64,000 nucleotides of DNA from Candidatus Methanomethylophilaceae archaeon (GTDB lineage: Archaea; Thermoplasmatota; Thermoplasmata; Methanomassiliicoccales; Methanomethylophilaceae), in assembly GCA_035271165.1 (NCBI GenBank), contig DATERX010000028.1:1-64000 (forward strand). Reading direction: 5' to 3'. The translations under genes and the position numbers were made by a program. A model generated the notes under the pieces. It made no database searches. It was not told where the DNA came from and was given only the letters and a program-made list of their open reading frames with translations. Shown here piece by piece: positions 18,768 through 47,143 of this stretch (position 1 is its first letter; every line of letters starts with the position of its first letter).

Positions 18768-18842
18768 GCCGCTGTGGCTAAGGGGTATAGCGGCGCCTTG
18801 GTAAGGCGCAGGTCGAGGGTTCAATTCCCCCCAGCGGCTCCA
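18768..18842 (+). tRNA. tRNA-Thr(GGT)
   Basis: Cloverleaf: acceptor GCCGCTG/CAGCGGC, anticodon stem GCGCC/GGCGC, loop TTGGTAA, genomically encoded CCA. Confidence 0.8.
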
Positions 18843-19258: not shown

Positions 19259-20473
19259 TCAGACCATTCTGTATATCACAAAACCGGACCAGATTTTCGG
19301 GAAGAAGAACGTAGACTTCTTGGGCATAAGCTTTCCATCCGCAGATAGACCCCACACATCGCGGAGCCTCGGATCGTTTAGCAGGATTGCAAGATCATAT
19401 TGCCCGTCGTCCATCTTGCTGATGGATGAGAGAATACTGGAATCGTAATCCACGACGGCCTTGTCCTCATCCCACTTGTACACACCCTTCAGGATTTTCT
19501 CCTGTACCACGTAGGTATCCAGCGCCATAAGTCCCTCTCCTCCCTCGTATTTTCCAAGGTAGGTCTTACCGGAGCGGAATCTGAGGCCCATCATCCAGTT
19601 GCCGAGACCGTTGAGCATCTCCTTCTCCGTACATTCCTGGACCTTAATGGCCTGGTAGATCTTACTGATCGCACTCTTCTCAGAGATGTTAGTGGTCTTG
19701 ACCAAACGATGTGTCGGTAGTATGACCAATCCCGGATCCTCCGTTGCAACGAGTGTGGCTAGCACGTAACCTTTCTTCTCGTCGTCCGGGTTCTCCTGAG
19801 AGTATGCCAACGCGGTCTCGTATCTGTGGTGACCGTCGGCGATCAGGACCCTCTGCTCCTCCATCGAGCTTGTGATCTCGTTACAGACCTTCTCATCGTC
19901 CAACACGGAGTATTTGTGTTCCACGCCTTCGTCGTCGATGTATTCGTAGACCAACTTCGAATGGTCGTTGATCTTGCGGTAAAGTTCATTATCGAAGGAA
20001 TCATGGATGCCCATTATGGATTCAAGATGTGCCTCCATATCCCTAAGGAGGTTGAGTCTGTCCGCCTTGACCTTCGAGAATGTCTCCTCATGAGGGATGA
20101 CCGTTCCATTCTCATAAGGTTCTGTCTTAAGCAGTCCGACGACACCGGTACGTGTCTTTTTCACACCGCCGTCATCGAATGTCTGTTGGTAGACGTAGAA
20201 TGATTTACTATCCTGCACCAAGGAACCATCCTTGATCCAGTTATCGAGTTCCCTCCTCGATCCACGATATCTCCTATCATCATCAGGTTTCAAAGTAAGC
20301 CTTGTGATGTTATGATAATTACTTTGAAGCTCCTCCAAGTACTCCGCGCCTATCACGTCGTAGGGGGGACTGATGCGATTTTCTACTGTTTCTCCAGCCT
20401 TTAGGGCTGGCCTGAATCCCGGAAAGGGTACGAAAGTAACCATAGCGCTCGTGGAGAAGACCGAATTACGCAT
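19259..20473 (-). CDS. DUF1015-family protein
   Basis: N-terminal VPFPGFRPALKAGE...ISPPYDVI matches the DUF1015 hallmark. Start may be the internal Met at 20443. Confidence 0.6.
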   Translation of the reverse strand: MRNSVFSTSAMVTFVPFPGFRPALKAGETVENRISPPYDVIGAEYLEELQSNYHNITRLTLKPDDDRRYRGSRRELDNWIKDGSLVQDSKSFYVYQQTFDDGGVKKTRTGVVGLLKTEPYENGTVIPHEETFSKVKADRLNLLRDMEAHLESIMGIHDSFDNELYRKINDHSKLVYEYIDDEGVEHKYSVLDDEKVCNEITSSMEEQRVLIADGHHRYETALAYSQENPDDEKKGYVLATLVATEDPGLVILPTHRLVKTTNISEKSAISKIYQAIKVQECTEKEMLNGLGNWMMGLRFRSGKTYLGKYEGGEGLMALDTYVVQEKILKGVYKWDEDKAVVDYDSSILSSISKMDDGQYDLAILLNDPRLRDVWGLSADGKLMPKKSTFFFPKIWSGFVIYRMV

Positions 20474-20493
20474 ATATCAAATGAACGAGCCTA

Positions 20494-21540
20494 TCAGCAT
20501 ATCCTGGGTACAGGGTCTCCGATCGGCGGTTCCAATATCCTTTTTCCTCCGACCTCGGTCCTGAGGATAACTCTCTTTGGTCCATCGTTCGCATACCCTA
20601 TCAACGCGGCATCCTTTCCTTCCGGCGTCGATCTCAAAACCTTCAATATCTCGTCAGCCATCTCAGGGACGCATGCGATGACGCACTTACCCTCGTTACC
20701 TATACTCAAAGGATCGAGACCCAATAGATCGCAGGCGTTGACCACACCGTCCCTCAGAGGTATAGAAGCATACTCTATCTCCATGCCAACATGTGATTTC
20801 GAAGCAAGTTCGTTCAAGGTGTTGGCCAACCCTCCGCGGGTGGAGTCTTTCATCGAAGCGATACCGCCGACCTTCAATGCCTTCTCGATCATCATGTTCA
20901 GCGGAGCGACGTCACTCTGTATCTCGCTTTCAAATCCGTAACCTTCACGGAAGGACATCAGCGCTATGCCGTGATCTCCAAAGTATCCAGAGGCGATTAT
21001 CGCGTCACCAGGTGCTATGTTGGAATCCGTGCACCAGTTGTGTGTGACCTTCCTGTATTCCTTAGCCTTATCAAAATTTGAATCAAGGTATTTCGACCTG
21101 CGGCCGATGGCCGATGTAGACATGAACATCTTGTCCACCGCGCCCGCCTCGACAACTTTCGTATCGCCGGTCTCTATCGGCACACCGCATTCCTTGCTGG
21201 TCCTTCCGGCACTGGACATTATCAAGTCCACGATATCAGTATCGAGTCCCTCCTCGATTATCGCGGAACATCCCAATGCCAGGGGTTCAGCGCCCATGAC
21301 GGCGATATCGTTCACGGTACCTGCGACCGAGATCCTCCCAAGGTCTCCGCCTGGGAATATAATCGGCTTCACCGTATGTCCGTCTATAGTGAACACAATC
21401 CCGTCTACCACGGCGGAATCATCCATCGAATCCAGTGATACCTCGGATTTAGCCTTGGGGAAGTGGCACACGATGTGCTTCGACAGGAACTCCTGCATGG
21501 CCTCCCCGCCGGCCCCGTCACTCATTACGACCTTTGCCAT
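20494..21540 (-). CDS. hypE: Hydrogenase maturation protein HypE (PurM-like)
   Basis: N-terminal MSDGAGG and C-terminal PRIC motif, both HypE hallmarks. Confidence 0.85.
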   Translation of the reverse strand: MAKVVMSDGAGGEAMQEFLSKHIVCHFPKAKSEVSLDSMDDSAVVDGIVFTIDGHTVKPIIFPGGDLGRISVAGTVNDIAVMGAEPLALGCSAIIEEGLDTDIVDLIMSSAGRTSKECGVPIETGDTKVVEAGAVDKMFMSTSAIGRRSKYLDSNFDKAKEYRKVTHNWCTDSNIAPGDAIIASGYFGDHGIALMSFREGYGFESEIQSDVAPLNMMIEKALKVGGIASMKDSTRGGLANTLNELASKSHVGMEIEYASIPLRDGVVNACDLLGLDPLSIGNEGKCVIACVPEMADEILKVLRSTPEGKDAALIGYANDGPKRVILRTEVGGKRILEPPIGDPVPRIC

Positions 21541-21633
21541 TTTTGGTTGATGAGTGAACACGGATAAAGACTTGTCTTAATTTTCAAAGTCGGCAGATAT
21601 TTAAAATAAACCCTCGTGTGTAACAGCGACGTT

Positions 21634-21708
21634 GGGCCCTTGGGGTAGCGGATATCCTGTCGGCCTTCGAAGCCGAGGACTCGGGTTCGAATCCCGGAGG
21701 GCCCACCA
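21634..21708 (+). tRNA. tRNA-Arg(TCG)
   Basis: Acceptor GGGCCCT/AGGGCCC, anticodon stem TCGGC/GCCGA, loop CTTCGAA, T-arm TCGGG-TTCGAAT-CCCGG, CCA encoded. TATA-like TATTTAAAATAAA lies ~30 nt upstream. Confidence 0.8.
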
Positions 21709-21860
21709 CTTCCTTTTTCATGGAATTGAGAAAGCCTCGCCTTTTCATATCTTGCTCCAAAAGCTACCTTTGACCGTCTTCAGATATCGACTCTTGCAAA
21801 CCATCTAGCTCGTAATGTGACACAAATTCAACAAACAACCGCGTTTGTCCTCATCGATAA

Positions 21861-22354
21861 GGTTCTTGCATTCGCCAGTACAACATTTGTTACAGAACGC
21901 AAAGGAGATTACCGAACACATCATTTCCTCAATCTGATTACCAGATTGAGCTTGAATATCAAATCACCATCGATGGTCTTCTCGATCTTCGCGTATTCCG
22001 ATCTGGTCGTACTATAGGTATCCAGATAGGATCTGTTGAAGAGGTACTTCTCGAACTCGTTCCTGTTATTGAGGTGAAGGCGCCAGGGAGACCTGACATA
22101 TGCTACCCCGGGAGAGGGATAGCGACATTCGTCAATGGTTGTTTCTGGTACCGGTGCCCAAAATGTGACCTCCCATTATAAGGGTCAATATTGATTTTTG
22201 GACGGCCAAATTCCAGGGTAACGTGGAACGTGACATCAGGAACACCATGGAGCTCGAATCCTCTGGATGGGCCGTCATCACAATCTGGGAATGTGAGATA
22301 AAGGAAGATAATGATGCGGTTTTGGACAGATTACTGTCTGTCCTTGTGTTTTGA
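21861..22354 (+). pseudogene. vsr: Decayed very-short-patch-repair (Vsr) endonuclease gene: no start codon, one frameshift, catalytic His residues replaced
   Basis: Frame A to the stop at 22179: APGRPDICYPGRGIATFVNGCFWYRCPKCDLPL*. Frame B to the stop at 22354: NIDFWTAKFQGNVERDIRNTMELESSGWAVITIWECEI...; E. coli Vsr has ...FVHGCFWHGHHC...EFWLEKIGKNVERD...GWRVLIVWECAL. Confidence 0.7.
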
Positions 22355-22362
22355 CTCCTTGT

Positions 22363-22932
22363 TCAGTTCCCAGGATAGGTCACCAGGGATTCCACGTCAT
22401 ATCCCTTCAATTTGTCGCGCCCATTCAGCCCGGCGAGCTCTATGACGAAGCATATCTTCACAATCTTTCCGCCGAGCCTCTCGATCATCTTGATCATGGC
22501 TTCAGTCGTACCGCCGGTGGCGATGAGATCGTCAACGATCACCACCCTCTGTCCGGGTTTGATACAATCTACATGAAGTTCCAATTCCGCTGTGCCGTAT
22601 TCCAGGTCGTACTCCTGGGAGATGGTCTCACGCGGAAGCTTTCCCTTCTTCCTTACGATGATGAAACCCTTGTTCATGGCGTATGCAACGGGAGCTCCGA
22701 AGATGAATCCCCTGGATTCGGATCCGGCCACAAGGTCGTAATCTATCCCGTCGAGCATCTCTACTATGCCGTCTATGGATTTTGCAAAACCATCCTTATC
22801 CTGTAAAACGGTTGTAATGTCTCTGAACATTATCCCTTTGGAAGGGAAATCCGGTATGGTCTCGATATAGTCTTCAACGGTCTTCATGTGGTAACCATCA
22901 CACAGGACTACCTGAACAGTATAAAAAGACAA
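22363..22932 (-). CDS. Purine phosphoribosyltransferase (adenine PRTase-like)
   Basis: PRPP-binding motif VVIVDDLIATGGT; 189 aa. Confidence 0.7.
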   Translation of the reverse strand: MSFYTVQVVLCDGYHMKTVEDYIETIPDFPSKGIMFRDITTVLQDKDGFAKSIDGIVEMLDGIDYDLVAGSESRGFIFGAPVAYAMNKGFIIVRKKGKLPRETISQEYDLEYGTAELELHVDCIKPGQRVVIVDDLIATGGTTEAMIKMIERLGGKIVKICFVIELAGLNGRDKLKGYDVESLVTYPGN

Positions 22933-23329
22933 TTATGTTAGAAGTTGCCCCCCTTGAAAAGGGGGTAAGGGGCTGGCAAACGCCAGTGTTATTGCGGTCA
23001 TCATTAGCGTCTTGCAGACCGTTCAGGTATGGTCAATCAGAGTAAAGCGCCATCAGGCCCGTCTTATGCTCTTTGTTACCGTAGTACCTTGTTGAACTTT
23101 CTTCGCCGCAGATCTTTGTGTATTTTCGTTTACCGATAGCCACTTACCTCCAGAATATACACGGAATTACTACTATTTATAGCAATCGTTCAACGAATTA
23201 CGTTGATTATCGAATATTACCTACGAATATCGTAATTAATTAGTTGAAAAGTATAGAAAACAGGGTTTTGAACAAAAACCCCTCGGTAGTGCATCATTGA
23301 TGATAGTATAAGGAAAAGAAAAAGAAAGA

Positions 23330-23345
23330 AGCCGGCCGTGGCCGG
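23330..23345 (-). terminator. Hairpin GCCGGCC-ACG-GCCGGC followed on the transcript by an oligo-U tract
   Basis: Lies 10 nt after the stop of 23356..24459; the minus-strand transcript then reads UUCUUUCUUUUUCUUUUCC. Confidence 0.6.
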
Positions 23346-23355
23346 CGTGATGGTT

Positions 23356-24459
23356 TCAGCCCAACTGTTCGGAGCAGTACGGACAGAACTTTGGCGTCTT
23401 CTTCAGACCCTTTAAGCTCTCCCCGCAGTAAGGGCACACGTTGAACACCTTGATGTCACCGGATCCCGAGGCCCCCTTCTGCATCGCAGGCGGCGGTAGC
23501 GGGTCTCTAAACTCCTCGAGCGCCTGTTGCTGAGGTGAGGGTTTTCCGCAGTCGTTGCAGTATTTGTACGGATAATCGTTAGGTGATCCGCAGTACGGAC
23601 ACAGGACCTTGGGAGCCTGCCCTTTATGACTCTGTTCCGTGGCCTGCTGCTGTTGCAGCTGTTGATACATCTGCGGGAAAAGCAACATACCGGTACCGAT
23701 CGCGGCACCTCCCTCGGAGTTACCTATCGCATCTGCCATGCGGTCCATGACTGAGTATCTCTTGAACGCCTCTCCCCTCTGGGAGCTGAACTGAAGATAT
23801 TCGAAGATCTTCTCCTGGTCCTCGTCGGTGGTCCTGAGCTCTGAAATCTTGAATGCCAATAGCTCGATACCCCTCTGGCGGAAGTACGGGTCGATCAACG
23901 CCCTCGTCGCGGACGATGCAAGCTCAAGACTCGAATAGACCTCCATGAAGTACTGTTTCGTGAGCTGCTGGGTGATCTGTTCGTTTATGAAGCTCTTCAT
24001 GAAGGCATTGACGTCACCGGTGCTGTAGGCGCTCATACCCCCAAGTATCTGAGTGTAGAATATCGCCACGTCGTTGATGCGGAACTGATAATCGCCGTTC
24101 GCCATCAAAGTGATCGGAACATCGTAATCGGGTGCGGCCTTGATCATACCCCTTATGCCCCACTTCCCGTTGAACATCTTAAGCGAGACGAATATGACCT
24201 GGACCTTGAACGGGGTCTCCTTATATCCCAGGGCAAGGTTGTAGAGTCTTGTCAGCCAGGGTATGTTGGACGTCGTCAACGTATGCCTTCCAGGCTCCAA
24301 AACACCGGTCAGCTGACCATCCCTCACGAACAACGCCACCGCATGTTCAGGTACTGTAACAGAGGTGACGGTCCTGAGGTCGTCCCTCTCGTACACATAA
24401 ACCATGTCGTCCTGGCCTTGGTTCTTCCATGATATGACATTGGTCTTTTCAACGACCAT
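23356..24459 (-). CDS. YdjI-type SPFH/Band-7-like protein with Q-rich linker and two C-terminal zinc ribbons
   Basis: N-terminal domain resembles B. subtilis YdjI (VISWKNQGQDDMVYVY...FVSLKMFNGKWGIRG). Q-rich linker QMYQQLQQQQ; Cx2C-x9-Cx2C and Cx2C-x12-Cx2C at the C-terminus. Confidence 0.6.
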   Translation of the reverse strand: MVVEKTNVISWKNQGQDDMVYVYERDDLRTVTSVTVPEHAVALFVRDGQLTGVLEPGRHTLTTSNIPWLTRLYNLALGYKETPFKVQVIFVSLKMFNGKWGIRGMIKAAPDYDVPITLMANGDYQFRINDVAIFYTQILGGMSAYSTGDVNAFMKSFINEQITQQLTKQYFMEVYSSLELASSATRALIDPYFRQRGIELLAFKISELRTTDEDQEKIFEYLQFSSQRGEAFKRYSVMDRMADAIGNSEGGAAIGTGMLLFPQMYQQLQQQQATEQSHKGQAPKVLCPYCGSPNDYPYKYCNDCGKPSPQQQALEEFRDPLPPPAMQKGASGSGDIKVFNVCPYCGESLKGLKKTPKFCPYCSEQLG

Positions 24460-24464
24460 TCAAA

Positions 24465-25007
24465 TCACTCCTTCGCCAGGAATCCCTTCATGACGGTTTC
24501 CCTTTCGTTATAGTCCTCGATCAATCTGTCGATGGTCCTCTCGACATCTCTGAGAGGAGTCTTGATGGCGTATTCACCCTGGTCAATCTTCTGTATCAGG
24601 TTGCCGATCTCCTTCCTCAGTAGGACGGTGCCGCCTATCAACTTGGCATCCCATGATATCAGGTCGTCCAGCTCCTCTTCCAGTATCTTGACCGAGGCAT
24701 GCCATCCGCTATAACCGTTCACGGCCTTCTTCACAGATATGTAATACTTGTCCACCTTCGAGGCTATCCTCTCGACATCCCTCATGAGGTCCAGGTTCTC
24801 TATGGCGACCCTGTGTACGGTTGCGAGATCGTTCTTTGCCCCCTCAAGGGTACGGGCGACCTCCTGTCTTATGGCACGGTCCTCGTCCCTACGGAGGTTT
24901 TTCTCTTTGTATCCCCTGTAGATGGGGATGTAAAGACCTACGCGTTCGATGAGTGACGTTGTGCCCTCCATCTTTTCGCTAACTGTCTCTTCCAACGGCA
25001 TTTTCAA
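24465..25007 (-). CDS. Soluble helical/coiled-coil protein of unknown family (operon member)
   Basis: 180 aa, no TM helix, charged heptad-like stretches; 4-nt overlap with the upstream 4-TM gene. Confidence 0.4.
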   Translation of the reverse strand: MKMPLEETVSEKMEGTTSLIERVGLYIPIYRGYKEKNLRRDEDRAIRQEVARTLEGAKNDLATVHRVAIENLDLMRDVERIASKVDKYYISVKKAVNGYSGWHASVKILEEELDDLISWDAKLIGGTVLLRKEIGNLIQKIDQGEYAIKTPLRDVERTIDRLIEDYNERETVMKGFLAKE

Positions 25008-25387
25008 TCACTCCTTATATCACGATTTTTAACAGCCAATACTATCACGAGTATGGCGATGATCAGGACTATCATTGCCACGGGGGCAATCCAGTCAAGG
25101 TCGGTGAACATGTACATGTAACCGGCCAGTCCGATAACCAGCATAAGCACGCCCATCACAAGGCTGTAGTCCGCCTCACTAGGTCCGAAGTTTGTACTCC
25201 GCCCCTTCTGCAACGGTGCCAACACTGCTACGGTCACCCCCATCATAATTAGTATCACCCAGAGGATGATGCTAGCTCCCATATCGGTTGCGTAGTATAA
25301 CACCAGGCCCACCACCAGCGATATAAGGAACATCGCCCCCGATATGGCTGAAAGGGTCCTGTTAGCCCTTCTGTCTCTGCTTTTCAT
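25004..25387 (-). CDS. Small integral membrane protein (4 TM)
   Basis: 127 aa, four hydrophobic helices, basic N-terminus MKSRDRRANR. Confidence 0.5.
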   Translation of the reverse strand: MKSRDRRANRTLSAISGAMFLISLVVGLVLYYATDMGASIILWVILIMMGVTVAVLAPLQKGRSTNFGPSEADYSLVMGVLMLVIGLAGYMYMFTDLDWIAPVAMIVLIIAILVIVLAVKNRDIRSD

Positions 25388-26949: not shown

Positions 26950-27888
26950 TCACCTCCTGAGATAGCTCAGCTGTGAATGTATAGCATACAGTTCCGCCTG
27001 CATCCTGGCCTCGGTCGCCCTTATCTCAGACATGGCGTTCTCGTGATAGCGTTGTGCTATCTCGTCCGCCTTCTTGGTGATGCTGGAATGACACGCCCTG
27101 CAGGCATAGATTGCCTCGTGGTCCTCCGTCTCGGAGGTAAGGGGCTCCCTGCCCGGCGGCGTACGGAGCGCTGGCGATATGTCGCTGGGGAGTGCGAAGA
27201 AATGTATACCAAGGCCGGAGACGACCCTGCCGCAATACCAGCATTTGCATGTCTTCGCATAATCGTTGATCAACCGGAGGTTCTCCTCCCCGGTATCGCC
27301 CATCTGTTTCCGGTATCCGTAAGCTATCTGTTGGTACTCGGCGGCCTTTCGCGGATCTTCCCAGACGGTACCAGTGGCATAGGCCTCATATCCCATGGCC
27401 ATAAGCATGGCACCTTCCTTCATACCGGTCCTTGTCGTATCGTTGTTGTAAATCTCGCTTAATTTCAAAGTCTCTTCGCCGACCTCGGTCTGATACCTCT
27501 GCGCTAATTCGACGAGCTTCTGGCCCTTGTCGACGAGATCCCTTCCGGAGCCGCGCATATTGGTGATTCTTATCTCCTCGATGGCAAGCTCCGATTGTTT
27601 GATCATGGTCTCGGTATTCACCATCGTCAGGCCGAACTCGAACTCCTTGGCATCGGTATTCTTAAGCGATGTGATGAGATTCCTATATGCTCCGACGTCC
27701 CCCATGTTGCCACGTAGATCAATCATGCCGACCACGACGGCCGAAAGGTCGTCTGGACCGCCATCCTTCCTTATCGATAGGAGGAGCCTTTCCCGTGCCT
27801 TGGCGAATTCCCCCTGCCGTATCAGGTCCATTCCCTGAATGTGCAGGTCATCTGCTTTCTTGAATCTGGAGAAAACCATCTGCTTCAT
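26950..27888 (-). CDS. 312-aa helical (TPR-like N-terminus) protein with C-terminal Cys-rich zinc-ribbon-like region; first gene of operon
   Basis: DLIRQGEFAKARERLLLSI helical-repeat-like N-terminus; CKCWYCG...CRACH cysteine cluster; C-terminal coiled coil. Confidence 0.4.
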   Translation of the reverse strand: MKQMVFSRFKKADDLHIQGMDLIRQGEFAKARERLLLSIRKDGGPDDLSAVVVGMIDLRGNMGDVGAYRNLITSLKNTDAKEFEFGLTMVNTETMIKQSELAIEEIRITNMRGSGRDLVDKGQKLVELAQRYQTEVGEETLKLSEIYNNDTTRTGMKEGAMLMAMGYEAYATGTVWEDPRKAAEYQQIAYGYRKQMGDTGEENLRLINDYAKTCKCWYCGRVVSGLGIHFFALPSDISPALRTPPGREPLTSETEDHEAIYACRACHSSITKKADEIAQRYHENAMSEIRATEARMQAELYAIHSQLSYLRR

Positions 27889-28123
27889 CCCAATATGGGA
27901 TTATTAAGTTAAAAACTATCTGACATGGATCGCACATAAAGAAAGAGGACGAAGTGTTAATGATAGGTTCAGAACGGAACCGCCCCCTCACCGTCTGAAT
28001 ATTCCACAGCTGTTAATGATTCAATCTCCATGTGCAATCCAGAGGTATGACGGGTGACCTGCAAACACGTGCCTTACTGTTCTAATCATTACTTTGTCCG
28101 CGTAATGGTATAAAATGATAGAT

Positions 28124-28131: not shown

Positions 28132-28193
28132 AAGAACAAACTTTAACCACTATAATCCACAGAAATGGAATATTGTATTGGAGGATAAAAAAC

Positions 28194-29816
28194 ATGGGTA
28201 TGGGTAACGCACCTATTTTGATTCTTAGAGAAGGAACCAAGAGGAATAAAGGAAAGGACGCTCAATACAACAACATCTCGGCGGCAAGGGCCATCGCAGA
28301 TTCAGTAAAGAGCAGCCTAGGACCCAGGGGTATGGACAAGATGCTTGTCGACTCACTGGGAGACGTCGTCATTACGAATGACGGAGTTACAATTTTGAAA
28401 GAGATGGATGTGCAACATCCCGCGGCAAAGATGCTCGTAGAGGTTGCAAAGGCACAAGATGCAGAGGTAGGGGACGGAACAACATCCTCCGTCATAATAA
28501 CAGGCGAACTCCTGAAGAAGGCGGTCGACCTGATCGAATCCAACGTTCACCCCACCATCATCACAGCAGGATACAAGCTTGCCAACGATGAGGCACAGAA
28601 GGTATTGTTGGACATCGCGAAAAAGGTCACCATCGATGATGAGGAGATCCTAAGGAAGGTCGCCGAGATCGCTATGATAAGCAAACAGGCGAGCGGTGCG
28701 AAGGAATACTTTGCCAAACTGACCGTTGATGCCGTCAGGACCGTCGCGGAGAAGGGCGAGGACGGAAAATACACCGTTGACCTTAGCAACATCCAGACAG
28801 TCAAGAAGGCTGGTGCAAGGATGGAGGAGACCAAGCTCTACAAGGGATTGGTCATCGACAAGGAACCCGTACAGCCCAGCATGCCTAAGGTCGTAAAGGA
28901 CGCGAAGATCGCTCTCATCGATGCTGCTTTCGAGGTCAAGAAGACCGAGATGGAGGCAAAGATCCAGATCACAGACCCCTCCCAGATGGCAGGTTTCATC
29001 GCAGAGGAAGAGAACATGCTCAGAAGGATGGTCGACTCAGTCAAGGCATCCGGAGCCAACGTGGTGTTCTGCCAGAAAGGTATCGACGACGTAGCACAGC
29101 ACATGTTCGCCAGCGCGGGGATATTCGCATGCAGGCGTGTCAAGAAGAGTGATATGGACAGGCTAGCTAAGTCCACCGGTGCATCCGTCATCAACAAGGT
29201 GAGGGACATAAGCGCCGAGGACCTCGGATTTGCGGGCAAGGTCGAAGTGAAGAAGGTCGAGAACGAAGAGATGACCTTCATCACAGAGGTCAAAGACCCC
29301 AAGACTGTCTCCGTGCTCGTAAGGGGCGGAACCCAACATGTCGCAGACGAGATCGAGAGATCCCTTGTGGACGCATGGTCCGCAGTAAAGGCCACAGTAG
29401 AGGACGGCCTTATCGAGACCGGCGGTGGATCCAAGGAGATGGAGATCGCAATGCGCCTCAGGGACCACGCATCATCCATCGGTGGAAGGACACAGATCGC
29501 TCTCGAAGCGTTTGCATCCGCCATGGAGGTAATCCCGGCGACACTCGCCGAGAACGCAGGTCTAGACCCCATCGACATGCTCATCGAGATGAGGAAACAG
29601 CACAAGGAGGGCAAGATAACGGCTGGAATCAACCCCTTCACCGGAAAGGTGGAGGACATGATGAAATCCAATGTCATCGAACCCTATAGAGTCGGTAAAC
29701 AGGCCATCAACGCCGCTACCGACACCGCTGTGATGATCCTCAGGATCGACGATGTCATAGCATCCTCCAGTAGCGGAGAGATGGACATGGGCGATCTCGA
29801 CGACTACGACGAGTGA
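28194..29816 (+). CDS. ths: Thermosome subunit (group II chaperonin)
   Basis: N-terminal [14 protein letters not shown] motif GDGTTS, acidic MGDLDDYDE tail. Start at ATG 28194 after the RBS, not the ORF-track 28173. Confidence 0.9.
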
Positions 29817-46526: not shown

Positions 46527-46714
46527 ACTCTGGATTTTTCTCGATAATTGAGTAATCCAATTATAATTCTATATAAAAAAATCATATCGGGCTCCGATGG
46601 AGATTTAAAATGACCCAGCGATGAAACTCGGTATGTTCTCATGTTAATAAAAACAATAGGTTTGAGAGACACTGCCTGATTAAATAGCCTTATTTCCGTA
46701 CAACTTCGATAAAT

Positions 46715-47143
46715 ATGATATGTACAAGATGCGGTTTTTCCAATCCAGACGGCACCAGGTATTGCACGTCATGCGGGAACGAGATGACGGACCGGCAAGG
46801 CGGGCCCAGATTCACAGAAGGCTACATTGACAATCAAATCTCACCTCAGAAGAGCATCGGTTTCGGGATTGTCTTTTCAGCATTGATCGTAGGATTGGGA
46901 CATCTTTACGCTGAAAAGATAGGCAAGGGGATCGCCCTATCCATCATATTCGGTGTCTTGATGATTATCACGATGACCTTCTACATGGAATGGATGTATT
47001 ACGGTTACCCATCGGGTGCTCTGTTTGCACTGATTTTCGGGATACCAGCGTTACTCCTGTGGATATGGACATTGTACGACGTAAGGGACACCATCAAGGA
47101 ATACAATCAACATCTACGTACGAGGGGCACACCTCCCTGGTGA
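46715..47143 (+). CDS. Zinc-ribbon + 2-3 TM membrane protein
   Basis: N-terminal CTRCGF-x9-CTSCG zinc ribbon, then hydrophobic helices. Confidence 0.5.
   Translation: MICTRCGFSNPDGTRYCTSCGNEMTDRQGGPRFTEGYIDNQISPQKSIGFGIVFSALIVGLGHLYAEKIGKGIALSIIFGVLMIITMTFYMEWMYYGYPSGALFALIFGIPALLLWIWTLYDVRDTIKEYNQHLRTRGTPPW

Follow-up and report, generated by a model that had tools for sequence, protein, structure and literature searches.

Stomatins, HflK/C and the flotillins FloA and FloT are SPFH proteins that carry a transmembrane (TM) helix or hairpin of their own and pair with NfeD or FtsH. YdjI (SamI) of Bacillus subtilis, encoded by the last gene of the pspA-ydjGHI (pspA-samGHI) operon, is a soluble SPFH protein with no membrane anchor and recruits the ESCRT-III-family protein PspA (PMC8581546); its architecture has been given as "band-7 and C-terminal ZnR" (PMC11237479, where the name is printed as YdjL). 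The YdjI/SamI type is the only SPFH class known both to be anchorless and to recruit an ESCRT-III-family protein, and experimental knowledge of it comes from that one Bacillus operon. Among archaea, the Meth_adaptin ESCRT loci encode a protein that combines SPFH, coiled-coil and zinc-ribbon parts (Makarova et al. 2024, PMC10936438). Here we describe a gene, g5, from a Candidatus (Ca.) Methanomethylophilaceae archaeon. It lies in a stretch of 64,000 nucleotides (nt), hereafter the window (GenBank assembly GCA_035271165.1, contig DATERX010000028.1, positions 1 to 64,000 of the forward strand). The new observation is that g5, which encodes an SPFH protein of the YdjI/SamI type, closes a strictly conserved five-gene operon of uncharacterised partners.

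The open reading frame (ORF) listing of the window gives a single long ORF at the position of g5, with an ATG start and 367 amino acids (aa). The gene and its parts are as follows.

23356..24459, minus strand: g5, the gene under study, encoding a 367-aa soluble SPFH protein (Band_7_1, YdjI/SamI-type) with two C-terminal zinc ribbons
23800..24381, minus strand: SPFH/Band_7_1 domain, residues 27-220 (Pfam PF13421 and PF01145)
23647..23739, minus strand: Gly/Met/Gln-rich segment, residues 241-271, MADAIGNSEGGAAIGTGMLLFPQMYQQLQQQ (near-invariant alignment columns)
23539..23607, minus strand: zinc ribbon 1, residues 285-307, with C287, C290, C301 and C304 (invariant cysteines; weak DUF7577, Zn_Ribbon_1 and DZR_2 matches)
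23443..23538, minus strand: Pro/Ala/Gln-rich variable tether between the ribbons, residues 308-339 (length variation, no conserved column)
23365..23442, minus strand: zinc ribbon 2, residues 340-365, with C342, C345, C359 and C362 and the conserved LxKTPKFCPYCSEQL (invariant cysteines; DZR and Zn_ribbon_3 matches)

Both Pfam profiles scored above their cut-offs. PF13421 (Band_7_1) matched residues 27-220 over profile positions 10-205 of 211 (E 3.5e-26; 92.6 bits, cut-off 24), and the superfamily profile PF01145 (Band_7) matched residues 35-220 with 37.2 bits against 23.6 (E 4e-9). A precomputed PF13421 match was present in all g5 relatives examined. The highest 19-residue Kyte-Doolittle mean was 0.86, so that g5 has no TM-like segment and appears as a soluble SPFH protein with no intrinsic membrane anchor. 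The strings quoted in the initial annotation of the gene occur at residues 8-23 (VISWKNQGQDDMVYVY), 90-106 (FVSLKMFNGKWGIRGMI) and 263-276 (QMYQQLQQQQATEQ). Low-complexity, Gly/Met/Gln-rich sequence spans residues 241-276 and is followed by two CxxC-CxxC ribbons, spaced C287PYCG-x9-C301NDCG and C342PYCG-x12-C359PYCS, whose eight cysteines were all invariant in 21 homologues at 66-82% identity. The SPFH profiles are matched and the cysteines are conserved; therefore, what had been noticed about g5 is confirmed. The protein is a member of the Band_7_1 family. The gene alone is ordinary and is already annotated in related gut methanogens.

[quoted passage not shown] BLASTP aligned the two proteins over 318 residues at 21% identity (E 1e-16), from the N terminus through the low-complexity segment into the first ribbon; of the YdjI query, only the two termini were checked, against the cloning primers in PMC8581546. 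The Gly/Met/Gln-rich segment of g5 aligned to the Met/Gly/Gln-rich low-complexity region of YdjI, its counterpart. The initial description of this segment as a glutamine-rich linker holds in part. Its low complexity is real, but a loose linker does not describe its first portion, since the stretch GGAAxGTGMLLFPQMYQQLQQQ was among the best-conserved parts of the protein in the homologue alignment and variability was found only downstream of it.

Ribbon models scored slightly under their Pfam cut-offs in g5 (DZR, 26.1 bits against 27.3; DUF7577, 24.2 against 28). The DZR match (PF12773) did not recover one compact module, its best stretch being the second ribbon only (residues 340-365). The tether varied several-fold in length among close homologues, from about 20 to 70 residues, with no conserved column. 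Because this tether is rich in Pro, Ala and Gln and variable in length, the ribbons are probably two independent units on a flexible, probably disordered connection, and the compact tandem zinc module once envisaged for them appears unlikely. Duplication of the ribbon had been considered unusual, which it is not. Among the 150 best cluster representatives of the family found with HMMER, 93 had no CxxC-CxxC ribbon, 14 had one, 26 two, 15 three, and 2 four. Within Band_7_1, the number of ribbons does not set a protein apart, and multiple C-terminal ribbons are common.

On the minus strand, g5 is the last of five genes, g1-g2-g3-g4-g5, separated by gaps of 2-19 nt. The other features of the operon are listed below in the direction of transcription.

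27901..27915, minus strand: AT-rich box TTTTTAACTTAATAA, located 13-27 nt upstream of the start codon (ATG) of g1 (read from the sequence)
26950..27888, minus strand: g1, encoding a 312-aa soluble protein with an N-terminal TPR-like repeat, a helical region, a split zinc ribbon and a long C-terminal helix
25407..26945, minus strand: g2, encoding a 512-aa soluble protein with a ribbon at the N terminus, then a helical solenoid, and an alpha/beta domain at the C terminus
25004..25387, minus strand: g3, encoding an integral membrane protein of 127 aa that has four TM helices and in which an FGPS loop is conserved (hydropathy and alignment)
24465..25001, minus strand: g4, encoding a 178-aa soluble protein with an N-terminal helix, an invariant loop IPxYxGYxxxxxRRxxDR and a four-helix bundle
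23321..23346, minus strand: terminator-like hairpin GCCGGCCACGGCCGGC followed by TTCTTTCTTT (a GC hairpin and a T tract), starting 10 nt past the g5 stop

The start of g4 was taken as the ATG at 25001 (the ORF listing has TTG at 25007), and its homologues are 176-178 aa long. The AT-rich box is a candidate archaeal TATA element that would imply a leaderless or near-leaderless transcript; a sigma-70 promoter scan is not applicable to archaea. The terminator-like hairpin at 23321..23346 probably marks the end of the operon.

The operon occurs in essentially every species of the order Methanomassiliicoccales. Synteny was examined in 80 species-level loci, 73 of which had at least 3.5 kb of DNA upstream of g5, and the order g1-g2-g4-g5 was kept in 73 of these 73. 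The tblastn search found g3 in 63 of them. In nine of the other ten there was a gap of 373-461 nt whose ORF had 122-153 codons, and in six of these nine the ORF encoded four TM-like segments; one locus was without g3. Median identity to the proteins of the window was 68% for g5, 54% for g4, 47% for g2, 44% for g1 and 38% for g3. All five genes were also present in Ca. Methanogranum. No Pfam family was found for g1-g4, which public records label hypothetical, and searches of PDB sequences with g5, g4, g2 and g1, single or as profiles, returned nothing except ribbons and one TPR repeat. Our literature search found no description of the five-gene operon, of a g4-SPFH pair or of an archaeal Bro1-like domain.

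A conserved set of partners recurs beyond Methanomassiliicoccales, in other archaea. Eleven Band_7_1 contexts outside the order were examined with hidden Markov models of g1, g2 and g4. One archaeal locus (L083) reads g1-g2-g4-g5, and a second (L086) differs by a 130-aa protein between g2 and g4. A Thermococcus-like contig of uncultured origin (L085, 7438-11551) has the order g4-g5-g1-g2, with an SPFH protein that ends in a SHOCT domain in place of the zinc ribbons; SHOCT is most often fused to PF13421 (PMC3581485). Ca. Culexmicrobium (L084) has g4-g5. A g4 homologue also stands immediately upstream of Band_7_1 in three bacterial phyla, represented by a planctomycete (E 2e-27), a spirochaete (E 4e-15) and Ardenticatena of the Chloroflexi (E 2e-21). 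Judged by these 11 contexts, the g4-SPFH pair is frequent, not universal, across archaea and bacteria.

The g4 family was the commonest SPFH partner seen; no Pfam model covers it, and B. subtilis lacks it. Because the commonest partner is missing there, the model organism B. subtilis may not be typical of the family. The gene set around most archaeal members, and around several bacterial ones, is a different and strictly conserved one. The cross-domain alignment of g4 shows a common motif, PG(Y/F)xGY...R..D. Hydropathy revealed no TM segment in g4, and its AlphaFold2 model (predicted local distance difference test [pLDDT] 84.7; predicted template modelling score [pTM] 0.80) is a compact four-helix bundle for which Foldseek returned no match at E < 1e-3. 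A role of g4 as a stand-in for PspA was considered and set aside, the bundle being compact, without such a match and not detectably similar to PspA or ESCRT-III.

The nearest named family is NCBIfam NF047596 (LIMLP_15305), of uncharacterised Leptospira proteins of about 175 aa, for which we found only a table entry in the literature. Its match to g4 is weak but significant, and colinear over the full length (E 1e-7, 32 bits against an equivalog cut-off of 210), and six g4-like proteins of other archaea and bacteria also match it (20-62 bits; E 1e-7 to 4e-17, g4 included). By these scores, the g4-like proteins are distant superfamily relatives of LIMLP_15305, not members.

Hydropathy of g1-g5 leaves g3 as the sole membrane-spanning product of the operon; it is also the least conserved gene and has no globular domain. 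No TM segment was detected in g1 by hydropathy. The cysteines of its split ribbon, C216/C219 and C263/C266, were invariant in 28 homologues, and its TPR repeat, matched by TPR_2 in 19 of 28 members, also emerged from a profile search of the PDB. We also considered g1 and g2 as paralogues. This was not supported: hhalign aligned only 29 columns, located after the ribbon, with a probability of 48%.

The locus shares with the B. subtilis system an SPFH protein of the same Pfam family, anchorless and with a low-complexity segment before a C-terminal ribbon, as the product of the last gene of an operon that also encodes an integral membrane protein and a protein whose N terminus holds a ribbon (YdjG in B. 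subtilis, g2 in the window). The differences are as clear. YdjI has one ribbon and g5 two; pspA and the TPM-domain protein YdjH are missing here, and the ribbon protein has no TM segment. In their place the archaeal operon has a TPR-ribbon protein, a ribbon protein with a Bro1-like solenoid, a small four-TM protein and, lacking in B. subtilis, a four-helix-bundle protein. Searches for PspA_IM30 and Snf7 in g1-g4 gave no match at E <= 0.1, and the YdjH-type TPM_phosphatase domain had no match in the operon, where the 127-aa g3 with its four TM helices is the only membrane protein. The initial remark that g5 sits in an operon unlike pspA-ydjGHI is thus upheld. It does not belong to the pspA-ydjGHI system. 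Its mode of action is plausibly similar, built on a soluble SPFH scaffold with ribbons, a ribbon-bearing partner and a membrane anchor.

We favour, as a probable reading by analogy, that g5 is a cytosolic scaffold of the YdjI/SamI type and that the five products work as one membrane-proximal complex for sensing or maintaining membrane integrity. Most of the weight lies on the identity of g5 and on complex formation, less on a function in stress. The SPFH domain of g5 would oligomerise on the cytoplasmic face of the membrane. Anchorless itself, g5 would be brought there by g3, with its four TM helices, and by g1 and g2 as helical adaptors that carry ribbons. Between them, g1, g2 and g5 have four zinc ribbons, which could serve as protein-protein contact modules on flexible tethers. 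The scaffold may then position or regulate g4, the four-helix-bundle protein with the invariant PGYxGY...RRxxDR loop. The role would be analogous to that of PspA-SamGHI, with different partners. Oligomerisation, the binding pairs, zinc binding and the stress function are predicted from what is known of SPFH proteins and of SamI, whereas family membership, domain anatomy, conservation of the cysteines, TM topology, synteny, the g4-SPFH pair and archaeal phylogenetic affinity were shown by the analysis.

Several points weigh against this reading. The similarity to YdjI is only 21%, obtained with a YdjI sequence checked only at its termini, and g4 is not detectably PspA- or ESCRT-III-like. Four of the 11 outside contexts (L087, L090, L092 and L093) are without g4, as is B. 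subtilis. No PspA_IM30, Snf7, TPM, NfeD or protease domain was called in the 12 contexts examined; the analogy with PspA-SamGHI therefore rests on g5 and the ribbon of g2 only.

The same domain calls bear on the idea that g5 cages a membrane protease, as HflK/C or stomatin-NfeD would. Its membership of the SPFH superfamily and the JGI name of its homologues, "membrane protease subunit (stomatin/prohibitin family)", speak for such a role, although the name is a generic COG label and not a tested function. The anchored SPFH proteins have the SPFH fold (Band_7) in common with g5 and are, like it, presumably oligomeric and membrane associated. However, g5 lacks a TM anchor, and neither the operon nor any related locus encodes FtsH, NfeD or another protease. 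Regulation of a protease is not known for YdjI, the one family member that has been studied. Caging of a protease is, in our estimate, very unlikely.

In the partner g2 we distinguish a ribbon (C9/C12/C30/C33), an all-helical solenoid of about 290 aa (residues 39-327) and an alpha/beta domain (residues 333-512). Hydropathy showed no TM segment, and the structural model was of good quality (pLDDT 85.9, pTM 0.80). The ribbon aligned with those of SPFH-adjacent proteins of other archaea that combine an N-terminal ribbon, a globular part and a TM segment (hhalign probability 96%). The C-terminal domain aligned with YdjG-like alpha/beta domains only over one 16-column PFW...Y motif (hhalign probability 24%). 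Structural matches of g2 included Bro1- and MIT-type folds, at sequence identities of 8-11%. No Pfam BRO1 or MIT match was found in 39 g2 members (0/39), nor any such match in the PDB profile search. The Bro1 proteins ALIX, BROX, HD-PTP and yeast Bro1 have neither the N-terminal ribbon nor the C-terminal alpha/beta domain of g2 and no sequence similarity to it. Bro1 and MIT are themselves TPR-like. The resemblance is a lead, not a membership, and may only reflect a shared TPR-like architecture.

This lead would fit an ESCRT-like machine for membrane remodelling or vesicle formation, in which g2 is a Bro1/MIT-type adaptor that grips the C-terminal helix of a polymer of the ESCRT-III superfamily (an opened form of g4, or a PspA/ESCRT-III protein encoded elsewhere) and an SPFH ring marks the site; the operon would then be more than a passive scaffold or sensor. 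Recruitment of PspA by YdjI (PMC8581546) and the recurrent link between SPFH and ESCRT in archaea noted by Makarova et al. (PMC10936438) speak for the idea. The Meth_adaptin loci offer a parallel: an archaeal SPFH protein with a ribbon, encoded beside helical and ribbon-bearing adaptor-like proteins at a locus thought to act on membranes. Their SPFH protein, however, is assigned to CDD cd03405 ("cd3405" in the supplement) and not to a YdjI-type model, and the loci contain Vps4, ESCRT-III, adaptin-appendage and GOLD proteins, none of which is encoded at the locus in the window. Nor were Vps4, Snf7 or PspA found in any neighbourhood examined. Given also the low identity of the structural matches and the lack of BRO1 or MIT profile matches in g2, we consider an ESCRT-like machine unlikely. 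According to Makarova et al. (2024, PMC10936438), not even Asgard archaea have yielded identifiable Bro1/Alix orthologues. Were the Bro1-like fold of g2 due to homology, it would bear on the origin of the ESCRT accessory proteins, a Bro1/MIT-like domain in a prokaryotic protein being of a fold class so far regarded as belonging to eukaryotic ESCRT accessories.

A broader version joins these threads. The g4-SPFH pair might be an ancient membrane-remodelling module of bacteria and archaea, in which g4 is a new kind of membrane-active effector, a four-helix bundle positioned by the SPFH ring; B. subtilis would have exchanged g4 for PspA, and the archaeal g2 would have recruited a Bro1/MIT-like domain. 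We rate this scenario as speculative and quite unlikely. Whichever view is taken, the operon offers four uncharacterised proteins for study, either in Thermococcales, if a tractable species has the g4-g5-g1-g2 version, or in the gut methanogens of Methanomethylophilaceae. Should none of the readings hold, g5 is still a correctly identified, ordinary member of the SPFH family.

We next consider how g5 is distributed. Rarity in archaea, part of the first description of the gene, was contradicted by the data: the g5 protein forms >300 clusters at 90% identity in Methanomassiliicoccales, and relatives exist in a Thermococcus sp., Ca. Culexmicrobium and other archaea. A scan of one genome per GTDB species gave 113 loci with a g5 homologue. 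Homologues at 62-99% identity, named "SPFH domain-containing protein" by NCBI, were present in Methanomethylophilaceae, Methanomethylophilus alvi, Ca. Methanogranum and Ca. Methanoplasma, which places the window in Methanomassiliicoccales. An exhaustive HMMER search with the SPFH domain returned 1778 clusters (50% identity) at E <= 1e-3, 591 at E <= 1e-10 and 14 at E <= 1e-30. Outside the order, the closest relatives come from archaea and show 32-46% identity; in the closest clusters every named member is archaeal (a Thermococcus sp. at 41%, Ca. Culexmicrobium at 35% and a record labelled "archaeon" at 32%). Named bacterial relatives first appear at about 29-31%, in Planctomycetes, a spirochaete and Ardenticatena.

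A simple neighbor-joining tree was built from 233 SPFH-domain columns of 64 sequences, most of them without a taxon label. It placed g5 in a clade of 17 members, with a bootstrap value of 86/100, whose named members are all archaeal; the named bacteria and YdjI fell outside. Branching within the clade was not resolved by this tree. The GC content around g5 is unremarkable.

These results bear on the horizontal transfer hinted at in the initial annotation. A recent acquisition of g5 from Firmicutes would agree with the fact that the only studied member, YdjI, comes from Bacillus and has the same architecture. Yet YdjI and g5 share only 21% identity, archaea supply the closest relatives outside the order, the clade excludes the named bacteria and YdjI, conservation of the whole operon extends through the order and past it, and the GC content is ordinary. 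The nearest relatives of g5 being archaeal, recent transfer from Firmicutes is not supported by the sequence comparisons, and we regard it as scarcely credible.

The breadth of the distribution also counts against a defence module, in which g4 would be a membrane-disrupting effector held in check by the SPFH scaffold. DO-GTPase2 and GAP1-N2 are typical of nucleoside triphosphate-dependent conflict systems. Both adjoin the operon at one archaeal locus (L086), and weak matches to NACHT N-terminal helical domain 1 were obtained for 3 of the 12 g4 family members scanned. PADLOC, however, gave no significant match, with none at all for four of the proteins and one marginal match of g2 (E 0.0033), confined to the ribbon region (residues 2-64). 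The operon proteins had no PHROGs match and no tblastn match in phages. Presence in essentially every species of the order is unlike the patchy occurrence of defence islands, and the operon occupies a stable core-genome locus beside housekeeping genes, with the same genes downstream in Ca. Methanogranum (adenine phosphoribosyltransferase [APRT], AIR-synthase-related [AIRS] and DUF1015). The structural matches are all generic helical bundles. A defence function is, in our view, highly improbable.

Other features of the contexts outside the order were also recorded. The spirochaete locus (L089, 6473-12322) encodes the g4-like protein and an SPFH protein with three ribbons, then two DUF4178 proteins, a 64-aa ORF, DUF350 and a protein with a spermine-synthase domain. 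A polyamine-linked operon of this type has been described with a CesT/Tir-PspA pair in the g4-SPFH position (PMC11237479), a stress context that speaks for the scaffold reading of g5. Both DUF4178 proteins of L089 start with cysteine-knuckle motifs, the second with a full CxxC...CxxC pair. At three loci of other archaea (L084, 9044-10941; L090, 8023-10424; L087, 8896-9657), one to three proteins with an N-terminal ribbon, an alpha/beta or TPR part and C-terminal TM helices are encoded downstream of the SPFH gene. They have a common (I/V)P(F/Y)(W/Y) motif, and the published architecture of YdjG (PMC11237479) resembles theirs; this recurring ribbon theme likewise favours the scaffold reading.

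In L086 (9141-16416), the SPFH gene is followed by one for a 96-aa mini-protein with a TM segment and a zinc ribbon (weak DUF7577), and then by DO-GTPase2 and GAP1-N2. In Ardenticatena (L091, 90-623), a 177-aa protein with a C-terminal CPNCG...CPYCG ribbon is encoded ahead of the g4-SPFH pair; inspection by eye suggests hydrophobic, probably membrane-spanning segments at its N terminus.

Two kinds of irregular record were met in the synteny set. The metagenome-assembled genome RGIG9098 has two contigs (L063 and L080) that each carry the operon, the L080 copy with 64 nt between g2 and g4 and without g3; the explanation is either a second, paralogous copy or a bin of mixed origin. A complete g1-g5 operon at 65-72% identity was also found in bacteria-titled records (L018, L021, L023, L024, L028, L029, L031, L045, L047 and L067). 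These records, all of "...-L1_cleanbin_..." isolates, include titles of Bifidobacteriaceae, Bacteroides ovatus, Ruminococcus CAG:579, Faecalibacterium CAG:74, Firmicutes CAG:194, Lachnospiraceae, Acutalibacteraceae, Dialister hominis, Prevotella hominis and Eggerthellaceae. The contigs look like mis-binned Methanomassiliicoccales and not like cases of gene transfer.

Within the window, the 423 nt at 22933-23355, between the operon terminator and the APRT gene, hold no ORF of at least 50 aa and match no Rfam family. They contain a second hairpin with a T-rich tail at 23282-23262. A tRNA-Thr(GGT) (18768-18842) and a tRNA-Arg(TCG) (21634-21708) flank the DUF1015 and AIR-synthase-related (AIRS/AIRS_C) genes. 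The downstream APRT-AIRS-DUF1015 neighbourhood (19259-22932) is common to the window and Ca. Methanogranum; the upstream neighbour, a thermosome subunit gene (28173-29816), is not. Elsewhere in the window, a short ORF on the plus strand (46688-47140) gave a marginal match to the g5 profile (E 0.003).

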